The position numbers were made by a program, and so were the translations under genes. Source: an uncultured Clostridia bacterium (GTDB lineage: Bacteria > Bacillota > Clostridia > Christensenellales > Borkfalkiaceae). From it: a DNA stretch of 64,000 nucleotides. The notes under the pieces are model-generated. The model was given only the letters and a program-made list of their open reading frames with translations. It ran no database searches and had not been told where the DNA came from. This document shows, piece after piece, positions 15,161 to 58,366 of the stretch; position 1 is the first letter of the stretch; each line of letters begins with the position of its first letter. The stretch covers positions 18,754 to 82,753 of the forward strand of contig CAKQLR010000003.1 in assembly GCA_934254725.1 (NCBI GenBank), written 5' to 3'.

Positions 15161-15175
15161 GACCTTAGTATGTTA

Positions 15176-15216
15176 AAAGGCAAGCTTCTTATATGAAAGC
15201 CTGCCTTTTTTATTTT
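15176..15216 (+). terminator. Intrinsic terminator after the ligase-like gene
   Basis: AAGGCAAGCTT-loop-AAGCCTGCCTT stem with one mismatch, followed by TTTTTATTTT. Confidence 0.6.
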
Positions 15217-15310
15217 CCCGAAAAATCATAAAAAACCGCCGTTCAAAGCAAATCCCTTATATATTATAAAAAGCAGCTTTAAAAAAACGCAATTTCCGCA
15301 TACTTGTAGT

Positions 15311-25127: not shown

Positions 25128-26237
25128 ATGGATAAAATCATAAAACTGACCCCGGCGATAAAAGATTACGTCTGGGGTGGAGAAAAGCTTAAAAAGTACG
25201 GCAAAACGGCGGATACTAATATCGCCGAAACTTGGGAACTTTCTTTTCATAAAGACGGCCTGTGTCTGTGCGAGGACGGCACTCCCTTGCGCGACGCGGT
25301 AACCGCTGCGGATCTCGGCGAAAACGTTAAGGATTTTCCCTTCTTCCCTATGCTCATTAAGCTGATAGACGCCAAGGACAATCTTTCGGTGCAGGTTCAC
25401 CCGTCCGACGAATACGCCCTTAAAAACGAAGGACAGTTCGGCAAAACCGAAATGTGGTACGTTGTAGAGGCGGACGAGGGCGCGGGGCTTTACCTCGGCT
25501 TAAAAAAGGACGTGACGAAAGAAGAATTTGCCGCTTCCATAGAAAACAACACAGTGCTTTCCCTTTTAAACTTCGTCAAAGTGAAAAAAGGCGACCATTA
25601 CTTTATCAAGTCCGGAACCATTCACGCCATAGGCAAGGGCTGCACGATATGCGAAATACAGCAAAACAGCAACCTGACATACCGCGTTTACGACTACGAC
25701 AGACGTGATAAAAACGGCAACCCCAGAGAGCTTCACGTGGAAAAGGCAAAATTAGTAGCAGATCTCCACGGCAAGAAACCCGTCTCCGTAGATATAGAAG
25801 AACCCGGTTGCCGCCTTATCGGTTGCAGCAAATATTTCACCGTAAGGTATGCCGAAGTGAACGGTAACGCAACGTTCGATGCAACCGCTCAAAGCTTTTT
25901 CGCCGTAACGGTGGTTGCGGGCAATTGCGATATAGAAGGCAGAACGGCAAGCGCGGGCGATACGTTCTTCGTCCCCGCAGGCTACGGAAGATTCACGTTG
26001 AGCGGCAATGCGGAAGTTATTCTTTCCGACGTAGAAAAATACTTTGCGACCGTCACCCGCGACGATATTTCCGTTAAAGCCGAAGTGGTTTCTTCAAACG
26101 GCAACGTTATAGCCGTAGGAATGAAGCGCATAGAAAATGAAAATCCGGAAGAAGAGAAAAGCAGACTTCTTGAAAAAATCCTTCTTTTCCTCGGTATGGA
26201 TACAAGCGATTTATCCGGAATAAAATCAGATTTTTAA
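25128..26237 (+). CDS. manA: Mannose-6-phosphate isomerase, class I
   Basis: YVWGG, QVHPSD, EMWYV and IHAIG motifs. It carries a ~55 aa C-terminal extension relative to a typical ~315 aa enzyme. Confidence 0.85.
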   Translation: MDKIIKLTPAIKDYVWGGEKLKKYGKTADTNIAETWELSFHKDGLCLCEDGTPLRDAVTAADLGENVKDFPFFPMLIKLIDAKDNLSVQVHPSDEYALKNEGQFGKTEMWYVVEADEGAGLYLGLKKDVTKEEFAASIENNTVLSLLNFVKVKKGDHYFIKSGTIHAIGKGCTICEIQQNSNLTYRVYDYDRRDKNGNPRELHVEKAKLVADLHGKKPVSVDIEEPGCRLIGCSKYFTVRYAEVNGNATFDATAQSFFAVTVVAGNCDIEGRTASAGDTFFVPAGYGRFTLSGNAEVILSDVEKYFATVTRDDISVKAEVVSSNGNVIAVGMKRIENENPEEEKSRLLEKILLFLGMDTSDLSGIKSDF

Positions 26238-30125: not shown

Positions 30126-30440
30126 TTATTTTTCTCCTTGTATTATTTTATTTACGATTGCCGTAAAACTCAGCCACTCTGCCGAGTCGTTTTCGAATTC
30201 TTCTTTCCCGAGTTGCGTTAACGAATAATATTTTCTCGGCGGTCCGCCGCTGTCCTCGGATAAATACGTTTTAACAAGCCCGTCGGCTTTTAATTTTCTT
30301 AAAATCGGGTACACCGTGCCGTCCGATATATCTATCTGATTTGAAATATATTCGGAAAGTTCGTATCCGTACATATCCTTTTTACTGAGTATTGCCAGAA
30401 TACACAGTTCGATAACGCCTTTTTTATATTGAATATTCAC
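30126..30440 (-). CDS. PadR family transcriptional regulator
   Basis: 104 aa with LCILAIL...MYGYEL...GTVYPILRKLKADGLV, the PadR wHTH signature. It uses a GTG start with AAGGTGG upstream. Confidence 0.9.
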   Translation of the reverse strand: MNIQYKKGVIELCILAILSKKDMYGYELSEYISNQIDISDGTVYPILRKLKADGLVKTYLSEDSGGPPRKYYSLTQLGKEEFENDSAEWLSFTAIVNKIIQGEK

Positions 30441-30506: not shown

Positions 30507-30591
30507 GTTTTTATCAAAAAAATAAAAAAAGTTTAAAAATTTTGAATTCAAGCCTGTACAGCTTCGGATTTTTAGCTCATTATAACAACAA

Positions 30592-30618
30592 AAGCAGCCA
30601 CATTCAATGTGACTGCTT
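30592..30618 (-). terminator. Intrinsic terminator ending the locus A operon
   Basis: AGCAGCCACAT-TCA-ATGTGACTGCT with one mismatch, followed on the minus strand by TTTTGTTGTT. It lies 60 nt downstream of the 761-aa gene stop. Confidence 0.65.
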
Positions 30619-30679
30619 TTATAAAAAACGCATCAAGCGCTTTCTGTGAAAAACGAATTATTATATCGTTTAAAGCTTT

Positions 30680-32965
30680 TTATTTGAATTTTCTTGACTT
30701 TTTAAAACCGTAAACGGCAAAGCCCAGGAATACCAGACATACAAAAGACTGAGCGATTGCAATACTGCCCGAACAACCCGAAGAAGATTCCGAAGGTTTA
30801 TCACCAGTGCTGTTTCCGCCGCCCACGATATTCATTTCGACACTGCAATCGAAACCGCCGTATTCGAACTTAACCGTGCACGTACCCGAAGCAGTATTAT
30901 CGAACCCGCTGAAATACACGTCGTTATGAGCCAACGAAATTTCGCCTATTCTGCCGCTCTGGAAAGTCAGTTTTAAAGAACCGTCTCTCAAGTCGATAAT
31001 TTCGCCCACGTTGTATTCTGTTTTAGGGCTGTCTTTAATTTCGATGGCAAGCAGAACGTCCTGCAATACGTTGATCGTAAAATCGCATTCGCAACCTTCG
31101 TATTTTATCTTCAGGGTTTGTTCTCCTGCGTCGGTACTGTAATAGCCCTCGTAACTTACGGACTCGTCTCCCAAATCCACTATAACGAAATCTACGCTGT
31201 TACCTTTTGCCGTGCCCGCCTCAAACCAGGCTTTAAGCTTGCTACCGCTTAAATCCAGGCTTTCATAGCCCGTGTAATACTTTTTATCGGCAGTTTCGAT
31301 TACCTCGATCGCTCTTATATAATCGGAACACTCCAAATCCACATCACACGTGTATGTGTTGCCGTTCGCCCCAAAGGATAACTCAACCGTATTCTTACCT
31401 ATTTGCGAAAGCTTTTCGAGCGAAGTAACGCAATCGCTCATCGAAACGTACGTCAGAGAGTTGTCGGCAAATTCAACTTTTAATCTTCCGCCGCTGAGAT
31501 CCAATTTTTTATTATACAAAAACTTTTCCGCAGCGGGCATATCGGAAACGGAAACCTTGCTCACCTGAGCGGCTTCGCGTACGGTGATAGCGACGGGGAC
31601 GTCTTTTTTATTAAGATTACCGTCCGTGGCTGTTACCGTAACATTATAAGTACCAGTGCTGTCGGGGGTAAAAGAAATACCCGATTCGTTAAGCGATACG
31701 TCCGAACCGTCTTGTTTTTTAACGGTATACGATAAATCCGCGCCGTATCCGACCGCTCCCGATTTAGCCGTTACTACGGATAAATCCACAGGGAATCCCA
31801 CTACGCCGCTATTCAGCGTGTCGGGTACCGTAACCACGGGTTCGCCTTGATATTTATAGACGGAAGAAACTTTAAGCCCGGAAAGGTACGCGCCGCCGTC
31901 CGCCTTATCGTTGTCGCTGGCATCGGTAATACGAACATATATCACTTTTGAAGAGTCCAAAAACTTTGTAACATCTAAAGTATATATTTGTTTATCCGCA
32001 GACCTCGAACCGCAAAGTATATCCGTCCACAACGCCAAAGAAGTGTACGCGGCAGGTTCTTCGCTTGTAATCTTGTTGCCGGTAGAAACGGACAATCTGA
32101 AAGTTCCCCAGACGTCTGCTTTCAACAACAAATTAGAAAAAACGTAGTTATCGGTATCTTCTTCGGGGACGCTGAATTTGTATACTCCGTAGGGTGCATC
32201 TATCAAAGCGTAAGAGCAGTGCGACAAATTGTTGCCCACTTCGCCGTTGCTTATGTAGGTGTTATACATAACGCCCTTATAAGTGTCGGTAGTTTTTTCG
32301 CCGTAAATACGGTAAGCGTCGTCTTTTAAATCTTTGACGGTTGCGGCAAAACCCGTTTCTTTTTCAGTATAAACTTCAGGGAAAAATTCGCTTTCCGCTA
32401 CAGAACCGTCGTGGAAGAACCTAAGACGGTCTACAACCTGCAACGAACCGCCTATCTTCGGGTTGCTTCTCATTCTGAAAAACAGCCTGTCCGTTTCGGG
32501 TTTCCCGTTCAGATACTCCTCGGCAAAGACGTCGATGGTCGTATAAATGTGTTTAACGCCCGCCATCGGATCGAAAACTTTATAATTCTCAAAATCGTCG
32601 GTCGTGGAAATTAACATTACGCCGTCGCCGCTGAAAACGCCGTCTATATAAAAATGTTTTGTGTCTTTCGGGATATCCACGGCGTAGTCTATATAATTTT
32701 CTACGTTCCCGGTCTGTCCGCCTACCAAACGAATTTTAAACGTGGGGTTCGACATAATGGAAGAACCGAGTTCGTCATAGAAGTCCGCCCCTTCATAAAT
32801 CTGACAGTCGTAAAAACTTTTAACGGTCATATCTATAACGGTGCCCGTTTTAATTTCAGCCGCCGCGATTGTATTTCCGAAAAGAGAAAAAGCAGTTCCC
32901 GTTACCGCGGCGAACAACACCGCGGTAAGTAAACTTAAAATTATTTTTTTTAATGACTTAATCAT
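30680..32965 (-). CDS. Cell-surface protein: signal peptide, two N-terminal beta-sandwich modules, Ig-like repeats, and a Gly-Cys C-terminal anchor signal
   Basis: 761 aa. It has three ~85-aa repeats resembling bacterial Ig-like group 3 domains (Y..G..LDLSG..L...), each ending in C-D/S-V/F. The tail is SGCSGSIAIAQSFVCLVFLGFAVYGFKKSRKFK. Confidence 0.85.
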   Translation of the reverse strand: MIKSLKKIILSLLTAVLFAAVTGTAFSLFGNTIAAAEIKTGTVIDMTVKSFYDCQIYEGADFYDELGSSIMSNPTFKIRLVGGQTGNVENYIDYAVDIPKDTKHFYIDGVFSGDGVMLISTTDDFENYKVFDPMAGVKHIYTTIDVFAEEYLNGKPETDRLFFRMRSNPKIGGSLQVVDRLRFFHDGSVAESEFFPEVYTEKETGFAATVKDLKDDAYRIYGEKTTDTYKGVMYNTYISNGEVGNNLSHCSYALIDAPYGVYKFSVPEEDTDNYVFSNLLLKADVWGTFRLSVSTGNKITSEEPAAYTSLALWTDILCGSRSADKQIYTLDVTKFLDSSKVIYVRITDASDNDKADGGAYLSGLKVSSVYKYQGEPVVTVPDTLNSGVVGFPVDLSVVTAKSGAVGYGADLSYTVKKQDGSDVSLNESGISFTPDSTGTYNVTVTATDGNLNKKDVPVAITVREAAQVSKVSVSDMPAAEKFLYNKKLDLSGGRLKVEFADNSLTYVSMSDCVTSLEKLSQIGKNTVELSFGANGNTYTCDVDLECSDYIRAIEVIETADKKYYTGYESLDLSGSKLKAWFEAGTAKGNSVDFVIVDLGDESVSYEGYYSTDAGEQTLKIKYEGCECDFTINVLQDVLLAIEIKDSPKTEYNVGEIIDLRDGSLKLTFQSGRIGEISLAHNDVYFSGFDNTASGTCTVKFEYGGFDCSVEMNIVGGGNSTGDKPSESSSGCSGSIAIAQSFVCLVFLGFAVYGFKKSRKFK

Positions 32966-33007
32966 TAAAACAGCTCCTTAAAACTAATGATATTTGCCCT
33001 CGTAAAC

Positions 33008-34504
33008 TTAACGAGATTTTTTACGGAGCAACGTAGCCGAAAAACCTAAAACCATCAAAGCAGCCATAATGTTTACGGACATGATACTGCTTCCGCAACC
33101 GCCGTCTTCTTCATTGCCGGAGGGTTCAGTGCCGCTGCCAGTATCGCCGGTATTATCTCCGCTGTTACCGGAACTGCTGTCGTCGGGACCGGGAGCAGGT
33201 GTCTCTTCTTCTACGGTAATAGTGAGTTCTTCACTTGCAACGCCGTCGATTACAACTTTAATTTTGTAAGTTCCGGCTGCGGTATCGGTGCCTAAAGTAT
33301 ACGTTAATGCCGTATAATCTTCCACTACGGTATCGTTTACGTACCATACAACGGTAGCGGGAGTTGTGGTTGCGGGGGTGTGAGCCGCTGTAACGGTAAC
33401 AGCCGTACCTACGGTAACGGTAGTATTATCCGCGCTTAAAGATACAGCGGTGATTGTGGGATCTTCTTCTTCGTAATATCCCGTCAAAGACATGCCTATT
33501 ACCTGAGCACCGCCGCCGGAAACGCCCGTTGCGTCGGAAAATCTTACATATAAACCGCCGTTTTCGTTCAGATAGTCGGTTACGTCAATCGTGTATTCGG
33601 TTACTGCCGCGGTAAACGGGCACAAAACGAACTGCCAGTTTTCAACTCCGAAAGGATCCGGGGTGCCTTCACCGGTATAAATAGCAACGGCTGCGTCGCA
33701 CGCGAAAACAAGCTTTAATTTAGCGCCTGCGAAACCATTTTCCATATCCAACGTATTAACGCCGTCGAATTTATAGGTCAGAACGCCGCCGTGTACCTTA
33801 CCGCTGCGCGAAGCGTCGATGGGGAAGCCGCCGTCCGCATAACGAACGCCGCTCTCGAGCTGTCCGCCGACGGACATATTGCTTACAAAAAATTCTGAAT
33901 CGAAATTGCTGTTTTCGCTATCCACGCTGAATCCGACGGTATCCGTCGTATAGTAACTCGGGAAGGTTTCCCCTGCAGTAAGAATAGTTCCGTTGTGTGC
34001 AAAGTTAACGTAATCGCGCAGTTTGAAAGATTTATTGTCCGCCGAACCGGTAACTTTAATATACACGGTACCCGTGTGCTGAACGCCTTCGAGCAAGTTC
34101 GAAGTATCCGCTATCTGTAAATCCTGATCTACGCTCCATTTTTTAGAATAGCTTTCGCCGTCGGTAGAAACGGATAAAGCAACGGTATTAAAACAGCTTG
34201 ATATTTTCAATATCGTAGTATCTTCGGGAAGAAGAATTTTCCAGACTATGTAACTGTCCTCACCATTTTTTCGACCGAATCTCGTTTCGCTGTTTCCTCC
34301 GCCGTAATCGGTCAAACCGGTTTCTACATTCTCGTAAGCGTCGGTCATATTTACCTGGTCTACAACGTAAAACGCGTTTTCTCTCATATCGATTTCGGGT
34401 TTGGAGGGTGTTGCCGCCTCATCTGCAGAAACCGAAGTAACGCCGCAGAGAGCAGTTACTGCCATCGCAAAAGCGATCAATAAAGTAAGTAATTTTTTCT
34501 TCAT
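33008..34504 (-). CDS. Cell-surface protein, paralogous N-terminal modules, Ig-like domain, and a Gly-Cys C-terminal anchor signal
   Basis: 498 aa with a signal peptide (AMAVTALCGVTSVSA). YVRFSDATGVSGGGAQVIGMSL matches YVRITDASDNDKADGGAYLSGLKV in the 761-aa protein. The tail is GGCGSSIMSVNIMAALMVLGFSATLLRKKSR. Confidence 0.85.
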   Translation of the reverse strand: MKKKLLTLLIAFAMAVTALCGVTSVSADEAATPSKPEIDMRENAFYVVDQVNMTDAYENVETGLTDYGGGNSETRFGRKNGEDSYIVWKILLPEDTTILKISSCFNTVALSVSTDGESYSKKWSVDQDLQIADTSNLLEGVQHTGTVYIKVTGSADNKSFKLRDYVNFAHNGTILTAGETFPSYYTTDTVGFSVDSENSNFDSEFFVSNMSVGGQLESGVRYADGGFPIDASRSGKVHGGVLTYKFDGVNTLDMENGFAGAKLKLVFACDAAVAIYTGEGTPDPFGVENWQFVLCPFTAAVTEYTIDVTDYLNENGGLYVRFSDATGVSGGGAQVIGMSLTGYYEEEDPTITAVSLSADNTTVTVGTAVTVTAAHTPATTTPATVVWYVNDTVVEDYTALTYTLGTDTAAGTYKIKVVIDGVASEELTITVEEETPAPGPDDSSSGNSGDNTGDTGSGTEPSGNEEDGGCGSSIMSVNIMAALMVLGFSATLLRKKSR

Positions 34505-34586
34505 TTTTTCTTCTCCTTATGAAAAAATATATTTTCTTTTCCCTTTCGAGGAAAATTAACTTGATTAGCCGACGTTTTCAGACGTA

Positions 34587-36257
34587 TCAGCCTTTTAAAG
34601 AAACGTTTACGTGCGGAACGTTTTCGCGTATCAGTTGGAAAAACTGTTCTGCCGTTACGATCTCTACGTCGTCGTCCAGATTTTGATACATTTCCACGGC
34701 GTCGCTGTAATCTCTGCTCCACGGATGAAGATTTACGAGAGTGTAACCTTCTATTGAACGGGGATTAACGGGGAAATTGTTGATTTTTTCCGCAATGGAA
34801 GCGCCCGTTTCGGGCTCCCACAAAGAAAGCCTGCAGGTTACGAACGGCATACCGTTCTCCGACCAATAGACGGAACCTTTTTCCGCTGCATAATAATCGC
34901 CTATCATACACTGAACGCCAAGCAATCCGGGAACACGCGAATAGTATTCGACAACGTCCTCCGTTACGCACGTATCGAGGATTTGCAGCGTCGTTAAGTC
35001 TCCGCGTTTCAAATAAGTTGCAAGTCTGCCGCAAAAATCGGACAGGTCGGGATACACCGAAGGATTTATATAACCTTGACCGGAAACGGCAGCCACGAGG
35101 TAATCGCCCGCGGAACCTATCTGGTTGTAAATATATCTTTGTAAAGCGGGCTGTATATCTATCGCCGAGGGCGAAATATTCCATCCCATCGGGAAATCCG
35201 CGCGTTCGGCGGCAAAATATTTTTTACTTGCATCGGGAGACAACGTATTGGAAAGCGCCTGTATATTATCCCCGTCGGAACATACGATGCACACGTAATG
35301 CTTGTTTTCTACTTCTTTGCGCTCGTATTGAACCATTTGTTTTAACTGTTTTACGCCGAAAAACTCGGTACAGCTAAAAACGGAAAGGTTTGCGCTCCAG
35401 TCGGAGGCGATAGTAAAATTGCCGTTCATAGAACTCACGTTTACGTGCGAAGTTTCGTCTATCGGGCCCCAACCGAAAACAGGGCTGTCGGTCTTCGTCC
35501 ATTCGTGCACTTCGCCGCGGAGTTGCAACGCTTCCAAAGTTTCTTTGCTTTGATAAAAACTGTAGTATTTGCAGGCGATCGCGTAATCGCACATCATCTC
35601 CACGCCTCCGGCAAGCTGACACAGACCGGAATTGTTTAATTTGTCCTTATAATTTTCGAAACACCATCTGTCGTTTTTATCGGTAACGTCAAGTTTTTTC
35701 GTCAATCCCAAATCTATATACTTTTGCTCTACGGACGCGTCTACAGGGATCCACCCCTCTACTCCGCATATTGTTACGGCCACGTTTTTGGACTCGCCGT
35801 TTTGCGAACGGTTATATAGAATATAGCCTGCGTTTTCGCCGAAACGCGTTTTGTAGTCCTCTACCATCTGCGCTATCGTTACGTTCTCGGTCGTTAAGCC
35901 GTATTCTTTGCAAATTTCGTTAAGCCACATCGAATGATGATAGCTTCCCGAGCAATAATATTCTGCCGCGGTCTGAGCAAAAAGCCCCTGAATCGCAGCT
36001 CCCGCAAGGATATCGCTGCCGCTCAAACCTCTTTCCACGTTGTAACCGAAAACTTTTAAATGACGGTTTTCGTTCATTTTAAAACTTTCGAAATACGTAA
36101 AATCGTCATCTGCGAGGTTAAGTTCATAAGGATCCTGCTCGGCAGGTTCGGTTGAGTCGGATGGTCCCGAAGAGTCGTTTTCTTTGCACGCGACCATTCC
36201 GAAAAGCAAGCAAAGGATCAGCAAAAAGGGAAATATTTTTATAAGCTTTTCTTTCAT
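34587..36257 (-). CDS. GxGYxYP family lipoprotein (putative glycoside hydrolase of an uncharacterised family)
   Basis: It contains the family-naming motif SGQGYINPSVYP and the lipobox LLFGMVAC. I trimmed the ORF (..36281) to MKEKLIK at 36257 to avoid overlap with the upstream gene. Confidence 0.75.
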   Translation of the reverse strand: MKEKLIKIFPFLLILCLLFGMVACKENDSSGPSDSTEPAEQDPYELNLADDDFTYFESFKMNENRHLKVFGYNVERGLSGSDILAGAAIQGLFAQTAAEYYCSGSYHHSMWLNEICKEYGLTTENVTIAQMVEDYKTRFGENAGYILYNRSQNGESKNVAVTICGVEGWIPVDASVEQKYIDLGLTKKLDVTDKNDRWCFENYKDKLNNSGLCQLAGGVEMMCDYAIACKYYSFYQSKETLEALQLRGEVHEWTKTDSPVFGWGPIDETSHVNVSSMNGNFTIASDWSANLSVFSCTEFFGVKQLKQMVQYERKEVENKHYVCIVCSDGDNIQALSNTLSPDASKKYFAAERADFPMGWNISPSAIDIQPALQRYIYNQIGSAGDYLVAAVSGQGYINPSVYPDLSDFCGRLATYLKRGDLTTLQILDTCVTEDVVEYYSRVPGLLGVQCMIGDYYAAEKGSVYWSENGMPFVTCRLSLWEPETGASIAEKINNFPVNPRSIEGYTLVNLHPWSRDYSDAVEMYQNLDDDVEIVTAEQFFQLIRENVPHVNVSLKG

Positions 36258-36261
36258 ATAA

Positions 36262-37914
36262 TCAGTTCTCCGTACAATCAACGTCTACCTGAGGTACGTT
36301 TGCGCGAATCATTTTAAAGAAATTATCCGCAGTTACGACGATTGTATTTTCATCGAGATTTTTAACGAGTTCCACAACGTCTGTGTACGACGTAGACCAG
36401 GGATGCACGTTGATTACGCTGTATCCGTTAATGGAAGTCGGATCCTTTTCGCACACATTTACCTGCGCGGCGATATTAGCGCCCGTCGTTTCCCAAAGAG
36501 AGAAGCGGCACGTAACGAACGGCATTCCGTTTTTCCAATAAACCGAACCGTGTTTAGCGGCATATTTCCAACCGGACATAACCGCGCAACCGTACAGACC
36601 TTCGATTTTTGAATAATATTCGAAAGCGTCGACGTCGATGGCTTCTTCCAAAATCTGCAAACTGTGGCAATCCGCCCTCTTAAGATAGTTACCGAGACGC
36701 TCCGTGAACAGCTTGAGCGCTTCCTGCGGGTAAGACGACGGATACATATAACCCGCACCCGAAACCGAAGCTACGAAATAATCATTCTCATCCATATTGC
36801 GATAGAGATAATTCATAATGCTCGGCTGCAAATCGACACAACTTACGTTAAGCGTCCAACCCATTTTGAAATTTTCTCTGTCTGCAAGATAATAAGCCGC
36901 GCTGAACGGGAAAGTATTGGAAACCGCCTGTATGTTATCTCCGTCGCTCATCATAATGCAAACGTAATGTTTGCCTTTTTGCGCAGTTACTTCTTTATGT
37001 AGGCTTTTCTGCGTGAAGGAAGTCCCCCACGCATCCGAACATAAAACGGTCATGTTGGCGCTCGTGTCCGAAGCGACGGTAAACTCTGCGTTATTCGACG
37101 CGATGGTTACGTCCTGACCTTCGGTGGTGGGTCCCCAACCGAATATAGGCGAATCGTCATCCGTCCAGCTCTGCACTCTGTTTCTGAAAGCAAGCGTCGA
37201 AATATCCGTATCTACCTGATAAAATCCGTAATATTTCCCGGCTATCCAATAATCGCGCGGGTACCATAAATCGGGCGAAAGCTGAAAGAGCGCGTCCGTA
37301 GCGAACTTATCTTTATAATCGTAATAACAGTCGGATTCCGTCATTTCGGTTACGTCCATAAGTTTTTCCATGTTGTAACCTTTTTTGCTGGAAAACTGCC
37401 TTTCCTGAGTAGTGTCCACGGGGATTGCGTTAAAAATACCCGCAAGGCTTGTCGCCACGTTTACGGATTCGGGGTTCTTAGCTTTATCGTACAAAATGTA
37501 TTTGGCGTCCGCGCCGAATTTTTCTTTATACGCGTTAACCATCGAATCGAACGTAACGGTTTCGGTGGTAACCCCGTACGTATCTTTCAGATCCTGCAAC
37601 CAAAGTTCGTTTGCGGAAAAAGTTAAATTATAATAAGTGATCTCGTCCCTGTTGAACAATCCCTGTATGGCGATAGCGGTAAACGCCTGAGCAAAATTGT
37701 CGTCCTCCCCCTTCCACACGAGCAATTTATTATCGCCGTTCATTTTAAAATTTTTGTAATAATCGTACTCTACGGTTGTCGGAGTTTCACCCGAAGATGA
37801 GTCGTCGGACGGTTTGTCCGATTGATCTCCGTTATTTTGTCCGCAACCTGCAAAACACGCAAAAACAAGCATTATCGCAAGAAAAAATGTAAAAAACTTC
37901 TTCATCTTTTTCAT
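36262..37914 (-). CDS. GxGYxYP family lipoprotein (paralog)
   Basis: SGAGYMYPSSYP motif and lipobox FACFAGC. Long shared blocks with the downstream paralog include HYVCIMMSDGDNIQAVSNT and GMPFVTCRFSLWE. Confidence 0.75.
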   Translation of the reverse strand: MKKMKKFFTFFLAIMLVFACFAGCGQNNGDQSDKPSDDSSSGETPTTVEYDYYKNFKMNGDNKLLVWKGEDDNFAQAFTAIAIQGLFNRDEITYYNLTFSANELWLQDLKDTYGVTTETVTFDSMVNAYKEKFGADAKYILYDKAKNPESVNVATSLAGIFNAIPVDTTQERQFSSKKGYNMEKLMDVTEMTESDCYYDYKDKFATDALFQLSPDLWYPRDYWIAGKYYGFYQVDTDISTLAFRNRVQSWTDDDSPIFGWGPTTEGQDVTIASNNAEFTVASDTSANMTVLCSDAWGTSFTQKSLHKEVTAQKGKHYVCIMMSDGDNIQAVSNTFPFSAAYYLADRENFKMGWTLNVSCVDLQPSIMNYLYRNMDENDYFVASVSGAGYMYPSSYPQEALKLFTERLGNYLKRADCHSLQILEEAIDVDAFEYYSKIEGLYGCAVMSGWKYAAKHGSVYWKNGMPFVTCRFSLWETTGANIAAQVNVCEKDPTSINGYSVINVHPWSTSYTDVVELVKNLDENTIVVTADNFFKMIRANVPQVDVDCTEN

Positions 37915-37936
37915 ATAAATCTACACCTTATCTTTT

Positions 37937-38812
37937 TTATTTAATTCCGGAAATACTCATGGACGCCAGGAAATATTTCTGGCATACAAAATACGTAGCG
38001 ACCACGGGAACCGTAATGGATATAAGAGCCGCCGCGCGAAGATAAGAGTCTCCGCTGCCCTCGAACTGAGGATAAAAGCTCATAAGTTTCAACTGAATTA
38101 CAAATTTGGACGGGTCGTGCGTAACAATCAACGGCCAAAGATACTCGTTCCATTTAGCGGTAAAGGTCATAATGCAAAACGTAAGTATGACCGAACGGCA
38201 CATGGGAAAAGCAATCTGGAAAATTTTTCTCAACTCGCCCGCGCCGTCTATATCTGCGGCTTCGAGGCACGCGTCCGGTATCTGATGCATAAACTGACGG
38301 AACATAAACACGCCGAATACGTTGATAAATCCGGGAAGAAATACGCCCGTCAATGTCTCGGTAACGCCCAAGCCGTCAACGATGATATAAATCGGAATGA
38401 GCAATACTTCGCCCGGGACCATCATCGAAGCCAATATAAGCCAGAACCAGACGTCCCTTCCTTTAAATCTCAGTTTGCCGAAGCAATAGCCGAGAACAAA
38501 CGCAAACACCAGACTTACGACGAGACTTACGACAACTACAACTATACTGTTGAAAAAGCCTTGCCATAAATCGCCTACTCTGAAAGCTTCCGCGTAGTTG
38601 GAAAAATGAATGCCGCCTTGCGGCCACCAATAAATCTTTCCGGGTTTTCCTATAAAATCGAGCGAAGTCAGCGACGACGCCAACTGCAACCAATACGGAA
38701 AAACCAGCAAAAAGCCCATAAACGCCATAAATAAGACGCAAAAAGTAACGACAAGCGCGTTAACGACCTTTTTTCTCTTACTTACAAGAGGTTTCAATTC
38801 GGTATTATTCAT
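37937..38812 (-). CDS. Carbohydrate ABC transporter permease (CUT1 family, MalG-like)
   Basis: 6-TM protein with the EAA loop EAADIDGAGELRKIFQIAFP. Confidence 0.9.
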   Translation of the reverse strand: MNNTELKPLVSKRKKVVNALVVTFCVLFMAFMGFLLVFPYWLQLASSLTSLDFIGKPGKIYWWPQGGIHFSNYAEAFRVGDLWQGFFNSIVVVVVSLVVSLVFAFVLGYCFGKLRFKGRDVWFWLILASMMVPGEVLLIPIYIIVDGLGVTETLTGVFLPGFINVFGVFMFRQFMHQIPDACLEAADIDGAGELRKIFQIAFPMCRSVILTFCIMTFTAKWNEYLWPLIVTHDPSKFVIQLKLMSFYPQFEGSGDSYLRAAALISITVPVVATYFVCQKYFLASMSISGIK

Positions 38813-39728
38813 ACGAAACCTCCTTATTGTTGAGCTTCATCTGTATGACAGAAAATATCATGACTACTAAAAACAATACCATGGCATAAGCGCTCGCCAC
38901 GCCCATTTTGGAGCGCTCGAAGGCAAGATAGTAAACGTACAGCACCGAAGACTGCGTTTTGCTTCCGCCGCTGGTAATAAGTTGCATGGGACCTATTACC
39001 TTAAAGCCGTTGATTATAGAATTGACAAGATTTAACGTAATGGTATTTGAAATCAAAGGGAGCGTAATGTAAATATACGCCTTTAATTTGCTGTCCGTTT
39101 CGAGGCTTGCGGCTTCAAGGTAAGTATCGGGTACGCCGATAATAGCCGCATAATAAATAAGCAACCCGCCGCTGAACCCTAAAAATACGGACGTAAACAT
39201 TAAAGCAAAAAGCGCATATTTTTCTTCGTTAAAATAGTTTATCGGGTTATCCAACGCGCCTATCGACATAAGCAGCGAATTAACTATGCCCGATTCGCTG
39301 CCGTCGAAAAGCAACTGAATAATGTTGCTCCCGACAACTGCTGAAACAAGTGCCGGCCAATACAGCACGGCAAGAAAAATCTTTTTACCGCGGGGTATTC
39401 TGGTAAGCATAAAGCCGAGTAACAACCCGAAAAAATTGCTCCCTATAGTGGTAAAAAACGCCCACTTGACGGATACCCAGAGCGACGACCAGAATTCGGC
39501 GTCGTACAGTTCGTGGTTTTTATCGAAAATTCTTATGTAATTATCAAAAGTAAAGCGAGTAATGTTGGCAACGCTCGTCTTCATATTCGTAAAGCTTATA
39601 ACTATAGCGAATATGAAGGCGGCGGCAAAAAACACAAGCCAGAAAATCAAGGGTATCGCCATCAGGGAATACGCCTTTATTTCATTGCGATATTTAAATT
39701 TGACAGAATTATTTTTTTTATTAGTCAC
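38805..39728 (-). CDS. Carbohydrate ABC transporter permease (CUT1 family, MalF-like)
   Basis: EAA loop EAASLETDSKLKAYIYITLP. The ORF track starts at a TTG at 39761, inside the SBP gene. I prefer the GTG at 39728, immediately after the SBP stop. The start is uncertain. Confidence 0.85.
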   Translation of the reverse strand: MTNKKNNSVKFKYRNEIKAYSLMAIPLIFWLVFFAAAFIFAIVISFTNMKTSVANITRFTFDNYIRIFDKNHELYDAEFWSSLWVSVKWAFFTTIGSNFFGLLLGFMLTRIPRGKKIFLAVLYWPALVSAVVGSNIIQLLFDGSESGIVNSLLMSIGALDNPINYFNEEKYALFALMFTSVFLGFSGGLLIYYAAIIGVPDTYLEAASLETDSKLKAYIYITLPLISNTITLNLVNSIINGFKVIGPMQLITSGGSKTQSSVLYVYYLAFERSKMGVASAYAMVLFLVVMIFSVIQMKLNNKEVSYE

Positions 39729-39729
39729 T

Positions 39730-41127
39730 TTAAGAATACAACTCCTTGAGATCTTTGGCAAGAGTCGTCTGAATTTTATCCAAGGTCTTAGCTTCCCCGT
39801 TCTTGAGCCATGCGGTCATAAGTCCGCTAAGCTCTTTCTGCGTCTGGCTCCATATGCCCGTTCCGGGACGAACCACCGCTTTTTCCAACGACGCGCCGAA
39901 CATCTGCCAGCTTTCGCTGTTATAATAATCGCTTTCCGCAAACGCCGCTTTTAAAGCGGGCATCTGATAAGAACCCTCTGCATACGCAAGCATGGAAGTC
40001 TGATCTTTTATCAAATATTTCATAAAGTCCAAAGCCAAAGCCTTGTTTTTGCTGCGACGGCTCATAGCCAAAGAATAAAGCCCCGCGCAGGATTTCGCTT
40101 CGTAACCGTCTTTAAGCGTTATAAGGTCCGCCCACCCCGCATTAAATATGCTTTCTACGGTAGGATCTTTACCGAGCTGATCATACTTTGCAATTTTCCA
40201 GCAACCTTCTTCGATAAATAAAACTTTACCTTCTTCGAACTTTGCTTCTTCAAACGTAGAAGATACAACACCGGTAGCGCCGAGTTGTTTTACTATCGTC
40301 TCAAGCTCTGCATTTGCAGCCTTGTCTGCAGGATATTCGTCGTTGCAAATAGTAACTTTGGAGAAATCGTCGTTCATAACAGAACCGCCGAGTCTTGCAA
40401 GCATGGAAACGTACTGCATAGAAGCAACGGACGCGTATTCGTTACCGGAAGGAATTGTCCACGCGCCTATCTGCTTTCCTGTCGTTCTGTTGTAATCGTT
40501 AACCTGTTTGCACCACCACAACATGGAATATTCTTCCTGCTCGCTGCCTAATTTTGTGGGAACACAGGCGTCGATATCGGTATATTGAATTCCGTTAGTG
40601 TCCAGAACGTTTTTCATCAGAACACGGTTATAAGCCAAACCGAACGTATTTGCCGCATAAGGAAGCGCATAAACGTCGCCGCCGTAATATCCCGTGTTAT
40701 ATAAAGAGGAATACAACGTATCTTTTACTTCGCTTAACAATTCGGGAGCAATACTGCTGAGGTCTGCAAGTGCCGGATCTCCGAAATAATAAGCAAGTAC
40801 CTGAATGTACACGCTATCCAACAATAATAAGTCGGGTTCGTTCTTTTTGCCGACCACCATAGCGTAGCTGGTGTAAAAATTATCGGCAGGCTGCGGCGTT
40901 AAGTTGATGGTAACGCCTTCGTGCTCTTGTTCGTAAGCTTTCTTGGCTTGCTTAGCGGCTTCGAACTGTGCGTCCGCGCCCGGCCACCATACGGTAATAG
41001 ACCCGCTTAACGGAGCGTCGGGGTTAACACTGTCGCCGCTGTTGTCCGATCCGCCGCATGCGCAGAAGGCGCATGCGAGCACTGCTATGAGTACACCTGT
41101 CACAAATTTTTTCAAAAATCCAGACAT
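39730..41127 (-). CDS. ABC transporter extracellular solute-binding lipoprotein (family 1)
   Basis: 465 aa with a lipobox (LACAFCACG). It is the first gene of the operon, with GGAG 9 nt upstream of the ATG. Confidence 0.85.
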   Translation of the reverse strand: MSGFLKKFVTGVLIAVLACAFCACGGSDNSGDSVNPDAPLSGSITVWWPGADAQFEAAKQAKKAYEQEHEGVTINLTPQPADNFYTSYAMVVGKKNEPDLLLLDSVYIQVLAYYFGDPALADLSSIAPELLSEVKDTLYSSLYNTGYYGGDVYALPYAANTFGLAYNRVLMKNVLDTNGIQYTDIDACVPTKLGSEQEEYSMLWWCKQVNDYNRTTGKQIGAWTIPSGNEYASVASMQYVSMLARLGGSVMNDDFSKVTICNDEYPADKAANAELETIVKQLGATGVVSSTFEEAKFEEGKVLFIEEGCWKIAKYDQLGKDPTVESIFNAGWADLITLKDGYEAKSCAGLYSLAMSRRSKNKALALDFMKYLIKDQTSMLAYAEGSYQMPALKAAFAESDYYNSESWQMFGASLEKAVVRPGTGIWSQTQKELSGLMTAWLKNGEAKTLDKIQTTLAKDLKELYS

Positions 41128-41157
41128 AAAAATTCACTCCTAAATTTTTTTTCTTCT

Positions 41158-41185
41158 ATTATACACCCCCCCCCCGCATTGTCAA
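41158..41185 (-). promoter_or_regulatory. Consensus sigma-A promoter of locus A with a G10 tract in the spacer
   Basis: The minus strand reads TTGACA-atgcGGGGGGGGGGtg-TATAAT. The -35 box is at 41185-41180, the 16-nt spacer at 41179-41164 and the -10 box at 41163-41158. The ATG at 41127 lies 30 nt downstream of the -10 box. Confidence 0.75.
41166..41175. repeat. Homopolymeric C10/G10 tract
   Basis: Counted directly: C at 41166-41175 on the plus strand. I saw no other G/C homopolymer approaching this length while reading the window. Confidence 0.95.
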
Positions 41186-41468
41186 CACAAAAGACACACA
41201 AATTACAAATTTTTTTCCGTGGGGGCAGTTTTTTTGAGGAATTATAAGGAATATTAGCCGAAAGGGCAACAAGAAAAATGCGGAAAAATTTACAAAAAAT
41301 TGTTTTTTGCAGAGTACGGATACAAAAATTTCAGTATGTATCAACCCTGCGAATCAACTGCCGGCACGAGGTTTTCTCTGCATACAACTGCCTGAAAAAT
41401 ATAAAAAAATCCGAGCGAAACGCCTCCGAACAGAGACCCGAATCGCACGGATTTTTATGATAAGATTT

Positions 41469-41888
41469 TTATTTACAACAATTTTTACTCGGTAAAATTC
41501 TTGTTGAGGGGTTTGTATCGTCGGCGGTTTTACCCGCTATCACATCGTCATAATGAGCGACTTTTTTCGTGATATAGTCAAAAATTTCCTGAGCTTCTTT
41601 CAATTTTTGCCTGGCTAAAGCAAGTTGCCTGTTCATGATTTCTCTGCGTTCTGCAAGCGTTTCGTCGCCCTGCAAACATAAATCGCCGTAGCGCTTTATA
41701 TCTTCGATGGACATTCCGCAACCTTTCAGACATTTTATGCCCATAAGCCAGTTGACCGATTCCTCATCGAACACACGGCGGTTTCCGCTATCGCGTTTTA
41801 CGGGTAAAAGGTTAAGGTTGGTATAATAACGAATGGTATGTTCGCTCATTCCCATAATTTCGGCTATTTGTTTTACGGTATATTTCAT
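41469..41888 (-). CDS. MerR family transcriptional regulator
   Basis: YTVKQIAEIMGMSEHTIRYYTNLNLLP HTH motif and a C-terminal coiled coil. Confidence 0.9.
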   Translation of the reverse strand: MKYTVKQIAEIMGMSEHTIRYYTNLNLLPVKRDSGNRRVFDEESVNWLMGIKCLKGCGMSIEDIKRYGDLCLQGDETLAERREIMNRQLALARQKLKEAQEIFDYITKKVAHYDDVIAGKTADDTNPSTRILPSKNCCK

Positions 41889-51504: not shown

Positions 51505-51637
51505 ACTTTTATAAACGAAGGATTCCCGGATATCAAAAAACGCTTCTTTCCTTAAAAAGAAAAAAAGTTGAAATTTTCAGCAAAAAAATACATGATTGAA
51601 GTTTCGGGAATATCATAAAATAGACAAGGGAGGTTTT

Positions 51638-53047
51638 ATGAAAAAGATTATTATGTTTCTTTTATCCGCAGTGCTTGCTGCAAGTTTTACGGCATGTAAA
51701 GCCGCCGCCGAGCCTCAATACTCTTCGGACGAAAAATTCGACATCGGCATGTGGGTAGGCGTTTCCGACAAAATCGTTGAATATGACGATTGGGGGAAGA
51801 AAACAGGCAAAGAAAGAATGCTTACCGACGACGAATTCCTTGAAAAATATCAATGGATTGCGGAAGCGGGCTTTACAATTGCTTACCCCGGTTACGAATA
51901 TATGCTTTGGGCTACCGAAAATTATAACAAAAAATGCCTTAAAGCCGCTCACGAGGTCGGCATAAAGCAAATTATAACCATTTCTTCGCTCAATGAATAT
52001 ATTAAAAAGCTTGACGTATTACTTAAATCCGGCGTCGAAACGGAAGAGCAGGCTATAAAAAAGATTCAGGATTTCGCCAAACCGTACCTCGAAAGCGAGT
52101 ATTCGGACGCATTCTACGGCTGCTTTATAGGCGACGAACCTGCCGCGGACAAATTCGATATGCACTCGGTAGCGTACGAAGTATTCCACAAAGCTCTGCC
52201 CGATTTGTGTTACTACGTAAACCTGTTCCCCGTTATCGCAACGGGCGCGCAGCTCGGCGGGGTTACGCCCATCAGCTATGAAACGTACATCGCGCAGTAC
52301 TTAAATAAGATAAAAACGCCGTATATAAGTTACGACCACTATCCCCTTTATAAGACGCGTTCGTATTATCTCGAAGCAAGCTTCCTGCAGAATATGCAAA
52401 TAATAAAAAAGGCGGTAAAAGAAGAGGGCGAGAACAGAAAAATATGGACGTTCCTACAGAGTATATCTTTCGGTAAAAACCGCAAACTCGAAAGCGCGGG
52501 CGACGCGACCTTCCAAGCGTACAGCTTCCTCGCTTACGGCGGAGACGGAATACAGTGGTTCTGTTTCTGCTGCCCGCCGCCCAACGACGGCTCCACAAAT
52601 TTCGGCAACGACGCGCTTTTGGACAGAGATTTACAGAAAACAGACGTTTACGATTACGTAAAACAAGCGAATTTAAACGTTCAGGCGATAATGCCTTATT
52701 ATAAAAACTTCACATGGAAAGGCGTAATGACATCTTCCGCAGACGGCGGCGAGGGCAACTTCGAAAGAATAGAGCGCCTTGAAAGCACCAAAACGCTTAA
52801 AAAAGTTTCAGGAACGGAAGACGTTCTCGTAGGCGTATTCGAAGATAAAGACGGCAGAGAAGGTTTCATGGCCGTAAACTTTACCGACCCGGGAAGAAAA
52901 CTCGACAACGAAGTTACGCTCAAACTGAACGGAGTAAGCAACGCGATAGTGGTGCTCAACGGAGAAAAAACGGTAATGCCCGTAAAACGCGGAGAGTTGA
53001 AATTATCCCTTAAATCGGGCGAAGGCTGTTTCGTAATACCTTATTAA
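51638..53047 (+). CDS. Secreted lipoprotein, putative TIM-barrel glycosidase-like protein of an unrecognised family
   Basis: The ORF track starts at a TTG at 51596; I prefer the ATG at 51638 (MKKIIMFLLSAVLAASFTAC), which has AGGGAGG upstream. The GCFIGDEP block resembles the clan GH-A NEP acid/base motif. It is a paralog of 59328..60779. Confidence 0.75.
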   Translation: MKKIIMFLLSAVLAASFTACKAAAEPQYSSDEKFDIGMWVGVSDKIVEYDDWGKKTGKERMLTDDEFLEKYQWIAEAGFTIAYPGYEYMLWATENYNKKCLKAAHEVGIKQIITISSLNEYIKKLDVLLKSGVETEEQAIKKIQDFAKPYLESEYSDAFYGCFIGDEPAADKFDMHSVAYEVFHKALPDLCYYVNLFPVIATGAQLGGVTPISYETYIAQYLNKIKTPYISYDHYPLYKTRSYYLEASFLQNMQIIKKAVKEEGENRKIWTFLQSISFGKNRKLESAGDATFQAYSFLAYGGDGIQWFCFCCPPPNDGSTNFGNDALLDRDLQKTDVYDYVKQANLNVQAIMPYYKNFTWKGVMTSSADGGEGNFERIERLESTKTLKKVSGTEDVLVGVFEDKDGREGFMAVNFTDPGRKLDNEVTLKLNGVSNAIVVLNGEKTVMPVKRGELKLSLKSGEGCFVIPY

Positions 53048-53069
53048 AATATTATCGGAGGAAAAAACG

Positions 53070-54527
53070 ATGAAAAGTAAAAGATTTTTGACAATGCTTC
53101 TTCTCGTTGTAATGACGTTCGCCTTTTTCGGCATGAACGCGTGCAAGAAGGATGAAAAACCGAGCGGTAATTACGGCAACGTTACTTTCGTAGAAAAAAC
53201 AGGCGAAATGTACCTTAAAGACAAAGAAGGCAAAACGCCCGTAAAAATTACATATTCCGAAGGCAACGGAAGCGAATGGATAAGAACCCTTTCCGCAAAA
53301 TTCCTCGAAGACGAAGCGGGTAAAAACTACTATATCGTTCTCACCGTAGACGAGCAGGCTACAACGGCTATGAGTTCCAAACTCGAAGACGGCGCAAACC
53401 TCGACGATATATATTATCTTTTAGCTTCTCCGTGGCAGAGCTATGCGGCTCTTGACCAGCTCGAATGCCTTGACGATCTTTATAACTCCACCCCCGACGG
53501 CGAAACCAGAACCATTCTCGACAAAATAACGGGCAGCTGGAAAACTTACGGTCAGGCGTACAACAAAAACGAACTGCACTATTATATCTTTCCGAACAAT
53601 ACACCCGTAACGGGTCTTGTTTACAACAAGACGATGTTCGACGAATACGGCTGGGAAGTTCCCGAGACCACCGCGGAACTCGAAGCGCTCTGCAAAAAAA
53701 TAGTTGCCGATACCAAAGGCAAAGTAGCGCCCATCGTATACCCCGGAAAGGTTGCCGGCGGTTACTGGGATTTCATCGGCACGACCTGGTGGCTTCAGGT
53801 TTCCGGCGAAGAAAAGATGAACGAGTTTATGCAGTTCGAGTCCGCCGAAGTATTCAACAGCGACAAAAAATCCTCGCCGTCCTACGGTAAACTCGAAATG
53901 CTCGAAACATTCCAGAACATCTTCGCAAAAAACAAAGACTCGTTCATTTATAAAATGTCCGGTTCTCTCGACCACTATCAGGCACAGCAAACGTTCGGCG
54001 CGGGGCTTGCCGCTATGATCCCCAACGGAAGCTGGATACAGAACGAATCCGGCGAGGACATCGAAGACGAAATAAGAATGATGCCCGTCCCCTATATGGA
54101 GAACGCGATTAAGGACGAAAACGGAAAGAGAATAGCTTACAACTACAGCGGTCAGCCCTCTTTCACTATTATCCCCAAGAATGCCGAAAACAAAGAAGGC
54201 GCGAAGGCTTTCCTTAAATTCATATCAAAAGACGACAGCCTTAAAACTTACACGCAGGTTACCGGCACGCCAATGCCTTTCGATTACGACATTTCTTCGC
54301 TTGAATTCAACGGCTTCCAGCAGTCCTGCGTGGACATCTGGGCAAACTCCGTAACCTGGTTCGAAGATTCCAAAAGTCCTTTATGGACAGGACTTAAACT
54401 CAGAAAATTCAATGGAGCGAATCCCTACACGAACATTATAATAAACTATCCTTCCGTAACCGCGGAAAGCTGGTGCGCAGCCGAATATGCGAGCGTAAAA
54501 GGCTCCTGGTCGGGCTTTAACGTTTAA
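53070..54527 (+). CDS. ABC transporter extracellular solute-binding lipoprotein (family 1)
   Basis: 485 aa with lipobox FFGMNAC. Size and composition are typical of CUT1 SBPs. Confidence 0.85.
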   Translation: MKSKRFLTMLLLVVMTFAFFGMNACKKDEKPSGNYGNVTFVEKTGEMYLKDKEGKTPVKITYSEGNGSEWIRTLSAKFLEDEAGKNYYIVLTVDEQATTAMSSKLEDGANLDDIYYLLASPWQSYAALDQLECLDDLYNSTPDGETRTILDKITGSWKTYGQAYNKNELHYYIFPNNTPVTGLVYNKTMFDEYGWEVPETTAELEALCKKIVADTKGKVAPIVYPGKVAGGYWDFIGTTWWLQVSGEEKMNEFMQFESAEVFNSDKKSSPSYGKLEMLETFQNIFAKNKDSFIYKMSGSLDHYQAQQTFGAGLAAMIPNGSWIQNESGEDIEDEIRMMPVPYMENAIKDENGKRIAYNYSGQPSFTIIPKNAENKEGAKAFLKFISKDDSLKTYTQVTGTPMPFDYDISSLEFNGFQQSCVDIWANSVTWFEDSKSPLWTGLKLRKFNGANPYTNIIINYPSVTAESWCAAEYASVKGSWSGFNV

Positions 54528-54541
54528 ATCCGTAAGTACAA

Positions 54542-55501: not shown

Positions 55502-55544
55502 AAAAATAAAACAGGCACCGCCTGAATAAAAAAGGAGAAAAAAG

Positions 55545-58316: not shown

Positions 58317-58366
58317 TCAGGTAAAATTATTATCGGTAAACAAACAATTAAACGAAATTTGTTTAA

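Follow-up and report, generated by a model that had tools for sequence, protein, structure and literature searches.

Proteins of the GxGYxYP family are enriched in the gut and have been represented by a crystal structure since 2011, and the family is still without a known activity. The literature in which full-text searches find it named consists of its description by Rigden et al. in 2014 (PMC4071793) and one survey of carbohydrate-active enzymes with a single mention. The 2014 description already noted that family members in Bacteroides and Caldithrix are associated with GH92 and GH38 genes and with mannan-responsive polysaccharide utilization loci (PULs). In Bacteroides thetaiotaomicron, BT3857 and BT3859 lie within PUL-Man3, which is induced by yeast mannan, and BT2200 adjoins BT2199, the gene of a GH92 surface α-mannosidase that is active on yeast mannan (PMC4071793; PMC4978465); in Caldithrix, a GxGYxYP protein is paired with GH92 and GH38 (PMC4071793). 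Here we describe an operon encoding two GxGYxYP lipoproteins in a 64-kb stretch of DNA from an uncultured Clostridia bacterium (the window, by which the whole stretch analysed is meant). On balance, we lean towards regarding this operon as a rare variant of a recurrent Bacillota cassette that would harvest α-mannoside-rich glycans, most likely fungal or yeast α-mannan.

The operon encodes, in order, a lipoprotein solute-binding protein (SBP), two CUT1-type permeases of an ATP-binding cassette (ABC) importer, the GxGYxYP lipoproteins GxG-A and GxG-B, and two surface proteins, Surf1 and Surf2. A Gram-positive PUL (gpPUL) is defined as an enzyme, a transporter and a regulator. The concept of gpPULs in colonic Firmicutes is reportedly that of Sheridan et al. 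in 2016. Like gpPULs, the operon would set extracellular carbohydrate-active proteins beside a CUT1 transporter, and related loci have a LacI/GntR-type regulator, whereas the window copy has no regulator, ATPase or enzyme of an established CAZy family and draws its candidate enzymes from an uncharacterised family. It also resembles the N-glycan pathway of Streptococcus pneumoniae (EndoD, SpGH92, ABC-NG/NgtS, GH38 and GH125; PMC5215778), in that predicted surface processing and ABC import are combined, in related loci, with cytoplasmic exo-α-mannosidases, and the pneumococcal GH38/GH92/GH125/ROK set recurs in those loci; unlike that pathway, it has no GH85/GH18 endoglycosidase, GxGYxYP proteins stand in that position, and the SBP is not detectably close to NgtS. 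PUL-Man1-3 of B. thetaiotaomicron likely act on the same class of substrate; two GxGYxYP genes belong to PUL-Man3, and proteins that bind at the surface work there together with surface enzymes before import (PMC4978465). These PULs form a SusC/SusD system of the outer membrane that has endo-enzymes of GH76 and GH99, whereas none of these is encoded in the window operon, and none of its seven products matches a TonB-dependent receptor or SusD family in Pfam.

Like the described GxGYxYP proteins (BT2193/3SGG; PMC4071793), the window pair has all four domains of the family, a predicted Glu/Asp/Asp site and the GxG motif. It differs in that the two proteins are lipoproteins of a Clostridia bacterium, presumed to have no outer membrane, and are accompanied by an ABC importer instead of SusC/SusD, that they form a conserved tandem partnered with anchored proteins of predicted β-sandwich fold, and that the motif of GxG-B reads GQGYINP. 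The family, its PUL association and its GH92/GH38 neighbours have been known since 2014, and the gpPUL concept is known as well; the Bacillota cassette, its fixed partnership with a previously unrecognised surface module, the Cys-type tail in Clostridia and the poly-G promoter are new. For experiments, the Bacillota cassettes are a cleaner system than the large PULs of Bacteroides: no candidate extracellular enzyme is present besides the GxGYxYP pair, whose product would be limited to importable α-manno-oligosaccharides, because an importer lies beside the pair and, in relatives, so do cytoplasmic GH38, GH125, GH92 and phosphomannose isomerase (PMI). A new CAZy family would be founded if an activity were assigned, and one would also understand how fungal mannan or the N-glycans of the host might be used by uncultured Christensenellaceae and their relatives among the Clostridia, which have been tied to host health time and again; a literature search for mannan use by Christensenellaceae found nothing.

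A recurrent Bacillota cassette and its likely substrate

Why connect this operon with mannose? The connection comes from its relatives. About 90 GxGYxYP homologs with 40-47% identity were found in uncultured Clostridia and Mollicutes, and the core SBP-permease-permease-GxGYxYP-GxGYxYP recurs in dozens of loci from Bacillota. L001, the locus with the closest orthologs, repeats all seven genes and their order, with proteins 55-77% identical, and adds a divergent regulator with a GntR-type helix-turn-helix and a periplasmic-binding domain and, directly downstream, a GH92 α-mannosidase that has no signal peptide. A commoner form of the cassette consists of LacI, a lipoprotein of about 900 amino acids (aa) that we call U936, the SBP, two permeases, a long GxGYxYP protein (about 980 aa) and a short one, and ends in PMI, MalK and ROK or in GH38.

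We took a census of 78 non-redundant related loci, in which neighbouring open reading frames (ORFs) were clustered and recurrent clusters were identified with Pfam. GH38 was present in 15 loci, with separate GH38 N-domain genes in 2 more, PMI in 11, GH125 in 8 and GH92 in 3; MalK accompanied 7 loci, ROK 5, and a LacI/GntR-type regulator 23 (L001 and 22 others). At least one mannose-specific gene (GH38, GH125, GH92 or PMI) lies within 10 kb in 30 of the 78. No other glycoside hydrolase (GH) family reached three loci in this census, the other identified recurrent clusters being housekeeping genes common to one genome family. All of the neighbouring GH38, GH125, GH92 and PMI proteins are without a signal peptide, and at least 78 of 109 GxGYxYP proteins begin with a lipobox-like N-terminus, as judged by a rough pattern. 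This distribution of extracellular GxGYxYP proteins, import, cytoplasmic exo-α-mannosidases and mannose kinase/isomerase in related loci points to an α-mannoside-rich substrate. The earlier note on this DNA had proposed a system that captures, depolymerises and imports an unknown glycan; nothing contradicts the system, whose five-gene core recurs and whose division between compartments fits, and the glycan can now very probably be narrowed to an α-mannoside-rich one.

In the α-mannan scheme, Surf1 and Surf2, tethered through a Cys-containing C-terminal signal, would hold the polymer at the cell surface, and the membrane-tethered GxGYxYP lipoproteins would cut or debranch it outside the cell at a site of conserved Glu/Asp/Asp residues. 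The lipoprotein SBP and the two permeases, which belong to the CUT1 family, would import the oligosaccharides, energized by a MalK/MsmK-type ATPase from elsewhere in the genome. Sharing of such ATPases from other genomic locations is common in Firmicutes. Cytoplasmic exo-α-mannosidases, a sugar kinase and mannose-6-phosphate isomerase, whose genes are present in related loci, would finish the breakdown; in the window, only a PMI gene (25128-26237) is nearby, outside the operon. Expression would proceed from a consensus promoter that has no dedicated repressor, and a hypermutable G tract in the promoter spacer may tune it.

Could the same machinery target the high-mannose N-glycans of host or dietary glycoproteins? 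The GxGYxYP proteins would then release or trim the glycans before import, as EndoD and SpGH92 do in S. pneumoniae, and GH38, GH125 and GH92 would trim them further in the cytoplasm. GH92, GH38, GH125, ROK and an ABC importer together make up the pneumococcal N-glycan gene set (PMC5215778), the habitat of the organism is the human gut, and N-glycan core linkages were proposed by Rigden et al. as possible GxGYxYP targets (PMC4071793). However, no β-mannosidase, GH130, GH18/GH85 endo-β-N-acetylglucosaminidase, GH20 or N-acetylglucosamine (GlcNAc)-catabolic cluster occurs in three or more of the census loci, and such functions would be needed for the Man-β-1,4-GlcNAc core; the SBP's list of 60 PDB matches, moreover, does not include NgtS. 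We regard N-glycans as an unlikely target, and the fact that none of these core-degrading functions reached three loci tilts the choice weakly towards α-mannan.

Several points weigh against α-mannan harvesting. The operon itself contains no gene for an α-mannosidase, an ATPase or a sugar regulator, and the PadR/HAAS genes, an unknown ORF, MnmA and an Mrp/ParA ATPase stand between it and the PMI gene. In 48 of the 78 loci there is no mannose gene within 10 kb, many of these contigs being short, and the enrichment in mannose genes consists of raw counts with no formal background control. The GxGYxYP pair are the sole candidate enzymes of the operon, and no GxGYxYP member with a demonstrated activity was found in the searchable literature. 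The likeness of the SBP to characterised sugar binders is weak, and a carbohydrate-binding role for Surf1 and Surf2 is drawn from their position in the operon and a low-confidence all-β model.

The importer was correctly described at the outset as an SBP with two CUT1 permeases, Pfam and NCBIfam both agreeing, with a weak Pfam match for permease 1. The SBP (39730..41127, minus strand, 465 aa) matches SBP_bac_1 at E 2.6e-15 (57.7 bits against a 26-bit cut-off), and its lipobox is legible in the translation as LAC or FCAC. Its NCBIfam matches to carbohydrate SBP equivalogs are weak, and in the PDB it comes closest to MalE-like sugar binders, with E-values of 8e-9 or weaker. Permease 1 (38805..39761, minus strand) is MalF/UgpA-like (UgpA-like in NCBIfam at 2.8e-20), scores 16.5 bits on BPD_transp_1, under the 26.4-bit cut-off, and has an uncertain start codon, its length varying with the gene caller from 285 to 318 aa. 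Permease 2 (37937..38812, minus strand, 291 aa) is MalG/UgpE-like, with BPD_transp_1 at 3.7e-17 in Pfam and a UgpE-like match at 3.6e-30 in NCBIfam. Compared with its counterparts in related GxGYxYP loci, the SBP shows 33-36% identity (E about 1e-75 to 1e-80), and the permeases show 40-49% to theirs (permease 1: 44-49%); by this specific relationship, the transporter travels with the GxGYxYP enzymes.

PMI lies no more than 10 kb from the GxGYxYP genes in 10 related loci, and in some, for example L006, it follows immediately downstream of the GxGYxYP pair. A Clostridia-type cassette with U936 and long and short GxGYxYP genes (41% identity to GxG-A) is present in L069 (CAVDSZ010000017.1), a contig labelled 'Akkermansia muciniphila', and is probably a binning contaminant and not an Akkermansia gene set. 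In L007 (CP076021, a complete Mycoplasmatota genome), the third GxGYxYP gene and its GH38 neighbour each appear split in two ORFs (13058-14665, 14754-17642), which may be frameshifts or pseudogenes. The census clusters U582, U528 and U397 were treated as shadow ORFs, at least U582 lying antisense over a GxGYxYP match.

The GxGYxYP pair and its candidate active site

GxG-A (36262..37914, minus strand, 550 aa), a putative extracellular glycan-active enzyme, matches all four GxGYxYP Pfam domains (PF16216/PF20957/PF20958/PF14323) above their cut-offs, the C-terminal domain at 5.4e-51. GxG-B (34587..36281, minus strand) has 564 aa if translated from a TTG codon and, more likely, 556 aa from an ATG at 36257; it too matches four domains, three of them above cut-off, with GxGYxYP_N at 19.4 bits against 23.9. 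Both are of the short type, with identities of 41-42% to the short forms against 29-31% to the long ones. Much of what the earlier note said of the pair is borne out: the two are paralogous (42% identical, E 1e-150), and both have lipoboxes that are legible in the translations, FAG↓C in GxG-A and MVA↓C in GxG-B. The motif strings quoted for them, SGAGYMYPSSYP and SGQGYINPSVYP, are both present, with a qualification for the second, in which Asn replaces the second, name-giving Tyr, so that the motif is GAGYMYP in GxG-A and GQGYINP in GxG-B. Across 53 aligned homologs G386 and G388 are invariant, and Y389 and P392 are at least 90% conserved.

The same alignment, which includes both window paralogs, has invariant E265, D324 and D326 (D324-G-D326). 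Mapped residue by residue on the 3SGG alignment, these correspond to the BT2193 triad E272/D331/D333. The sole PDB sequence relative of GxG-A is 3SGG, the Joint Center for Structural Genomics (JCSG) structure of BT2193 (E 1.3e-43). An AlphaFold2 (AF2) model of GxG-A built from the 53-sequence alignment has a predicted local distance difference test (pLDDT) score of 90.8, and in a Foldseek search its only match at E ≤0.001 was again 3SGG (E 1.5e-33, TM-score 0.79/0.85, root-mean-square deviation 3.1 Å); every other match in the PDB library, current to April 2026, had E >0.01. The structure of 3SGG is functionally unassigned, and the statement that the family has no characterised member agrees with the literature and the PDB library searched.

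A hydrolase activity is predicted for the pair. Alternatively, the GxGYxYP proteins might not be GHs at all and might prepare or present the substrate as esterases or deacetylases, as mannosyl-phosphate phosphodiesterases (yeast mannan bears mannosyl-phosphate groups), or as non-catalytic binders. Their C-terminal seven-stranded β/α barrel is most like CE4 deacetylases and allantoinases, the sole catalytic domain seen in a fusion with GxGYxYP is a phytase-like phosphatase, and activity assays on the GxGYxYP members of the B. thetaiotaomicron mannan PULs had so far failed (PMC4071793); Man-1-P linkages are mentioned in PMC4978465. Yet the catalytic residues of CE4 enzymes and allantoinases are absent (PMC4071793), the invariant Glu/Asp-Gly-Asp cluster lies in a conserved, glycerol-bound cleft with GH9-like geometry (PMC4071793 and our alignment of 53), and the loci would be left with no extracellular depolymerase if GxGYxYP were not one. 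A role other than that of a GH is improbable in our judgement.

Surface proteins and their C-terminal tails

Surf1 (33008..34504, minus strand, 498 aa) consists of a signal peptide, a module at about residues 30-350, a following region that we take to be immunoglobulin (Ig)-like, a G/S/D-rich linker, the sequence GGCGSS, a transmembrane (TM) helix and RKKSR. Surf2 (30680..32965, minus strand, 761 aa) has a signal peptide, a module at about 36-377, a PKD-like region (3.7e-4 in Pfam, under cut-off), Big_3 repeats (1.6e-13), a linker, SGCSGS, a TM helix and KKSRKFK. The signal peptides of both are of the ordinary type, not lipobox. That the two are paralogous is upheld by their N-terminal regions of about 350 aa (24% identical, E 1e-10). 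They had also been credited with Ig-like and CBM-like (carbohydrate-binding module) parts: the Ig-like part stands for Surf2 through its Big_3 match, and the CBM-like part does not, as searches with the N-terminal module, a six-sequence profile included, matched nothing in Pfam, NCBIfam or the PDB, and its model is poor. That AF2 model, from three sequences, is an all-β double β-sandwich with pLDDT 48.6, and its Foldseek matches (neuropilin b1b2, Vip3 and SGBP-B at TM-scores of about 0.2) are generic tandem β-sandwiches that were not used as evidence for a CBM. Surf1 as a whole has no match in Pfam or NCBIfam.

How widespread is the module? Word-based searches returned orthologs only, and two JGI metagenome scans returned nothing. 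When 1.84 billion representative proteins were scanned exhaustively with HMMER, the only three strong hits were Surf1, Surf2 and the L001 ortholog of Surf1; 13 weak ones (E 1e-12 to 1e-3) are repeated segments of about 100 residues in large proteins. With L010 ('Clostridia bacterium PG1894_211'), where both Surf genes follow the GxGYxYP pair, the Surf-type variant is known in three lineages only: the window, L001 and L010. Among the weak relatives, P0098 is encoded directly after SBP-GxGYxYP and before GH38 (L088/L089), P0095 directly after SBP-GxGYxYP and before GH38 and GH92 (L090/L091), and P0102 after permease-permease-SBP, behind a GntR-type regulator, in a sugar ABC operon (L086). Because these relatives were found without regard to context and sit in the same kind of operon, they provide independent support for the Surf-type module as a dedicated partner of GxGYxYP/ABC systems.

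The U936 lipoproteins (about 900-1190 aa, no Pfam match) precede the SBP in 22 loci (L006:1049-3712, L008:862-3606 and 20 others). Their C-terminal β-sandwich repeats are homologous (hhalign 97%, E 2e-11) to the C-terminal extension, about 400 aa long, of the long GxGYxYP proteins, of which L006:6988-9927 is an example. The window operon has neither U936 nor the long GxGYxYP paralog, and Surf1 and Surf2 occur in their place; U936 is probably a substrate-binding component that these have replaced. A shared C-terminal strand pattern had prompted a comparison of Surf with U936 and the long extension, and homology of the Surf module to either was rejected by hhalign (E ~0.2).

There is at best a slim chance that the subclade of the window, L001 and L010, in which Surf1 and Surf2 were gained and the long GxGYxYP and U936 lost, now acts on some glycan other than a mannose-based one, so that the context of the wider family does not transfer: the window operon is without a mannose gene, identity between its GxGYxYP proteins and those of loci with mannose genes is only 40-47%, and the accessory proteins differ, but L001, the closest ortholog locus, retains GH92 directly downstream, and the Surf-like P0095 and P0098 sit with GxGYxYP and GH38/GH92, contexts that indicate a mannosidase link of the Surf-type variant itself.

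Surf1 and Surf2 end in a tail composed of a Gly-Cys signature, a hydrophobic stretch of about 20 residues and an R/K cluster (with GGCGSSIMSV in the C-terminal end of Surf1, 33008-33110, and SGCSGSIAIA in that of Surf2, 30680-30800). Such tails are present on 10 proteins: five of the six Surf proteins (GGCGSS, SGCSGS, GGCKGA, GGCGGA and GGCGKA), P0095, P0098, P0102, and two unrelated L088 proteins, which have Flg_new repeats and Big_2, respectively. The carriers come from L001, L010, L086, L088 and L090 as well as the window, and have at least four passenger architectures. As unrelated passenger domains have it in common, the tail looks like a sorting signal. The proteins had been called anchored, which the TM helix after the conserved Gly-Cys motif upholds; the anchor is not of the LPXTG type, neither window tail matching the LPXTG model.

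The nearest models are the MYXO-CTERM models of NCBIfam (TIGR03901 and TIGR03382), on which the tails nevertheless score below the cut-offs (17.9 against 20 bits and 14.3 against 15.85), the Surf1 tail reaching 13.5-14.3 bits on TIGR03382. They share with MYXO-CTERM the tripartite arrangement of Gly-Cys signature, hydrophobic helix and basic cluster (bioRxiv 10.1101/2023.06.07.544157; PMC11980579). They differ from it in these sub-threshold scores and in their occurrence in Clostridia, and no CPBP-family sorting protease is encoded in the 64-kb window; in the Haft preprint on such Cys-containing signals, neither Firmicutes nor Clostridia are mentioned (bioRxiv 10.1101/2023.06.07.544157). We describe the tail as MYXO-CTERM-like in form and do not call it a family member; it may be an undescribed Cys-type sorting signal of gut Clostridia. 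If it is a true sorting signal, it would extend myxosortase-type anchoring to Clostridia.

Operon boundaries, the poly-G promoter and neighbouring genes

The seven co-directional minus-strand ORFs run head to tail from 41127 to 30680 with gaps or overlaps of at most 82 nt, and lie between a promoter and a terminator as one transcription unit, in the place that the earlier note assigned to it. The sigma-70-type promoter (41158..41185, minus strand; TTGACA-16 nt-TATAAT) matches the consensus at 12 of 12 positions and is the sole such match in the 12 kb scanned. The start codon of the SBP gene is only about 30 nt downstream of the -10 hexamer, which leaves no room for a riboswitch leader. The intrinsic terminator (30582..30622, minus strand) has a 16-bp stem, a 3-nt loop and a U-rich tail, the stem (30622..30588) being followed by UUUUGUUGUU; its folding energy is -24.7 kcal/mol (z = -4.55), and none of 200 shuffled sequences was equally stable. 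This hairpin was not in the list of an automatic terminator scan and was revealed by folding.

The arginyl-tRNA synthetase encoded in the window belongs to a cluster at 90% identity that bears the name 'Christensenellaceae bacterium'. Near-identical copies of the locus (99.3-100% DNA identity) are present in several human-gut metagenome assemblies, including Hadza samples, and among GTDB species representatives the best ortholog is only 44% identical. Two gene-content claims hold: none of the seven proteins belongs to an established GH family in Pfam, and no ABC ATPase of the MalK/MsmK type is found among them or among the scanned ORFs of the 64-kb window. The claim that there is no local regulator holds for regulators of the sugar type, and has to be amended for the two regulator genes that flank the operon, each with a partner of its own: a MerR gene (41469-41888) with its own terminator and a divergent aldo-keto reductase gene, and a PadR gene (30126-30440) paired with a HAAS gene. 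MerR was rejected as a regulator of the operon on account of its terminator and aldo-keto reductase partner and of the 16-nt operon spacer, typical MerR promoters having spacers of 19-20 nt. Searches of the window by tblastn with the L001 regulator and the L001 GH92 found nothing credible, and no cre-like site is present in the promoter region of the operon. A type-I PMI gene (25128-26237, plus strand) is located 4.4 kb past the operon terminator.

The 16-nt promoter spacer reads ATGC-G10-TG. Apart from its G10 tract (41166..41175, minus strand; C10 on the plus strand), no run of a single base, whichever it be, reaches 9 nt within the window. G10 is present in six assemblies including the window (the others being L002-L005, which are assemblies of a 99.3%-identical strain, and L084), and contig L083, from another sample, has G12 and hence an 18-nt spacer, being otherwise identical over 4398 bp (0 mismatches, 1 gap). 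The 100%-identical contigs L084 and L085 begin at or inside the tract. The tract is a candidate slipped-strand expression switch, in which a hypermutable repeat may modulate promoter strength, and the G10/G12 difference is possibly an assembly artefact at a homopolymer. Such a promoter would exemplify how a nutrient-harvesting operon of a gut commensal comes under contingency-locus regulation. The most far-reaching proposal would join all parts: GxGYxYP proteins as new extracellular enzymes active on α-mannan or N-glycans, Surf proteins as a new class of surface glycan binders that are their fixed partners in gut Clostridia, a Cys-dependent sorting signal that would be a Clostridial counterpart of MYXO-CTERM and imply C-terminal lipidation and cleavage, and slipped-strand tuning by the poly-G tract in place of a repressor. 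To this combination as a whole we assign a low probability.

The alignments of L002-L005 to the window break at about 41305-41365, between the MerR terminator and the operon promoter, a sign that about 60 nt upstream of the promoter have been replaced or are an indel. In L001, three TGTACA/GTACA boxes (L001:3280-3330) are found in the interval from the gene of the GntR-type regulator to that of the SBP, and look like an operator; nothing similar is present upstream of the window operon.

A second sugar-transport locus occupies 51596-63301 on the plus strand of the window. An SBP and two permeases are encoded there amid four proteins with no Pfam match (483, 923, 483 and 406 aa), of which two, the one of 923 aa and the second of those with 483 aa (59328-60779), lack sequence relatives in the PDB, and the locus continues with a ROK/MarR-type regulator.

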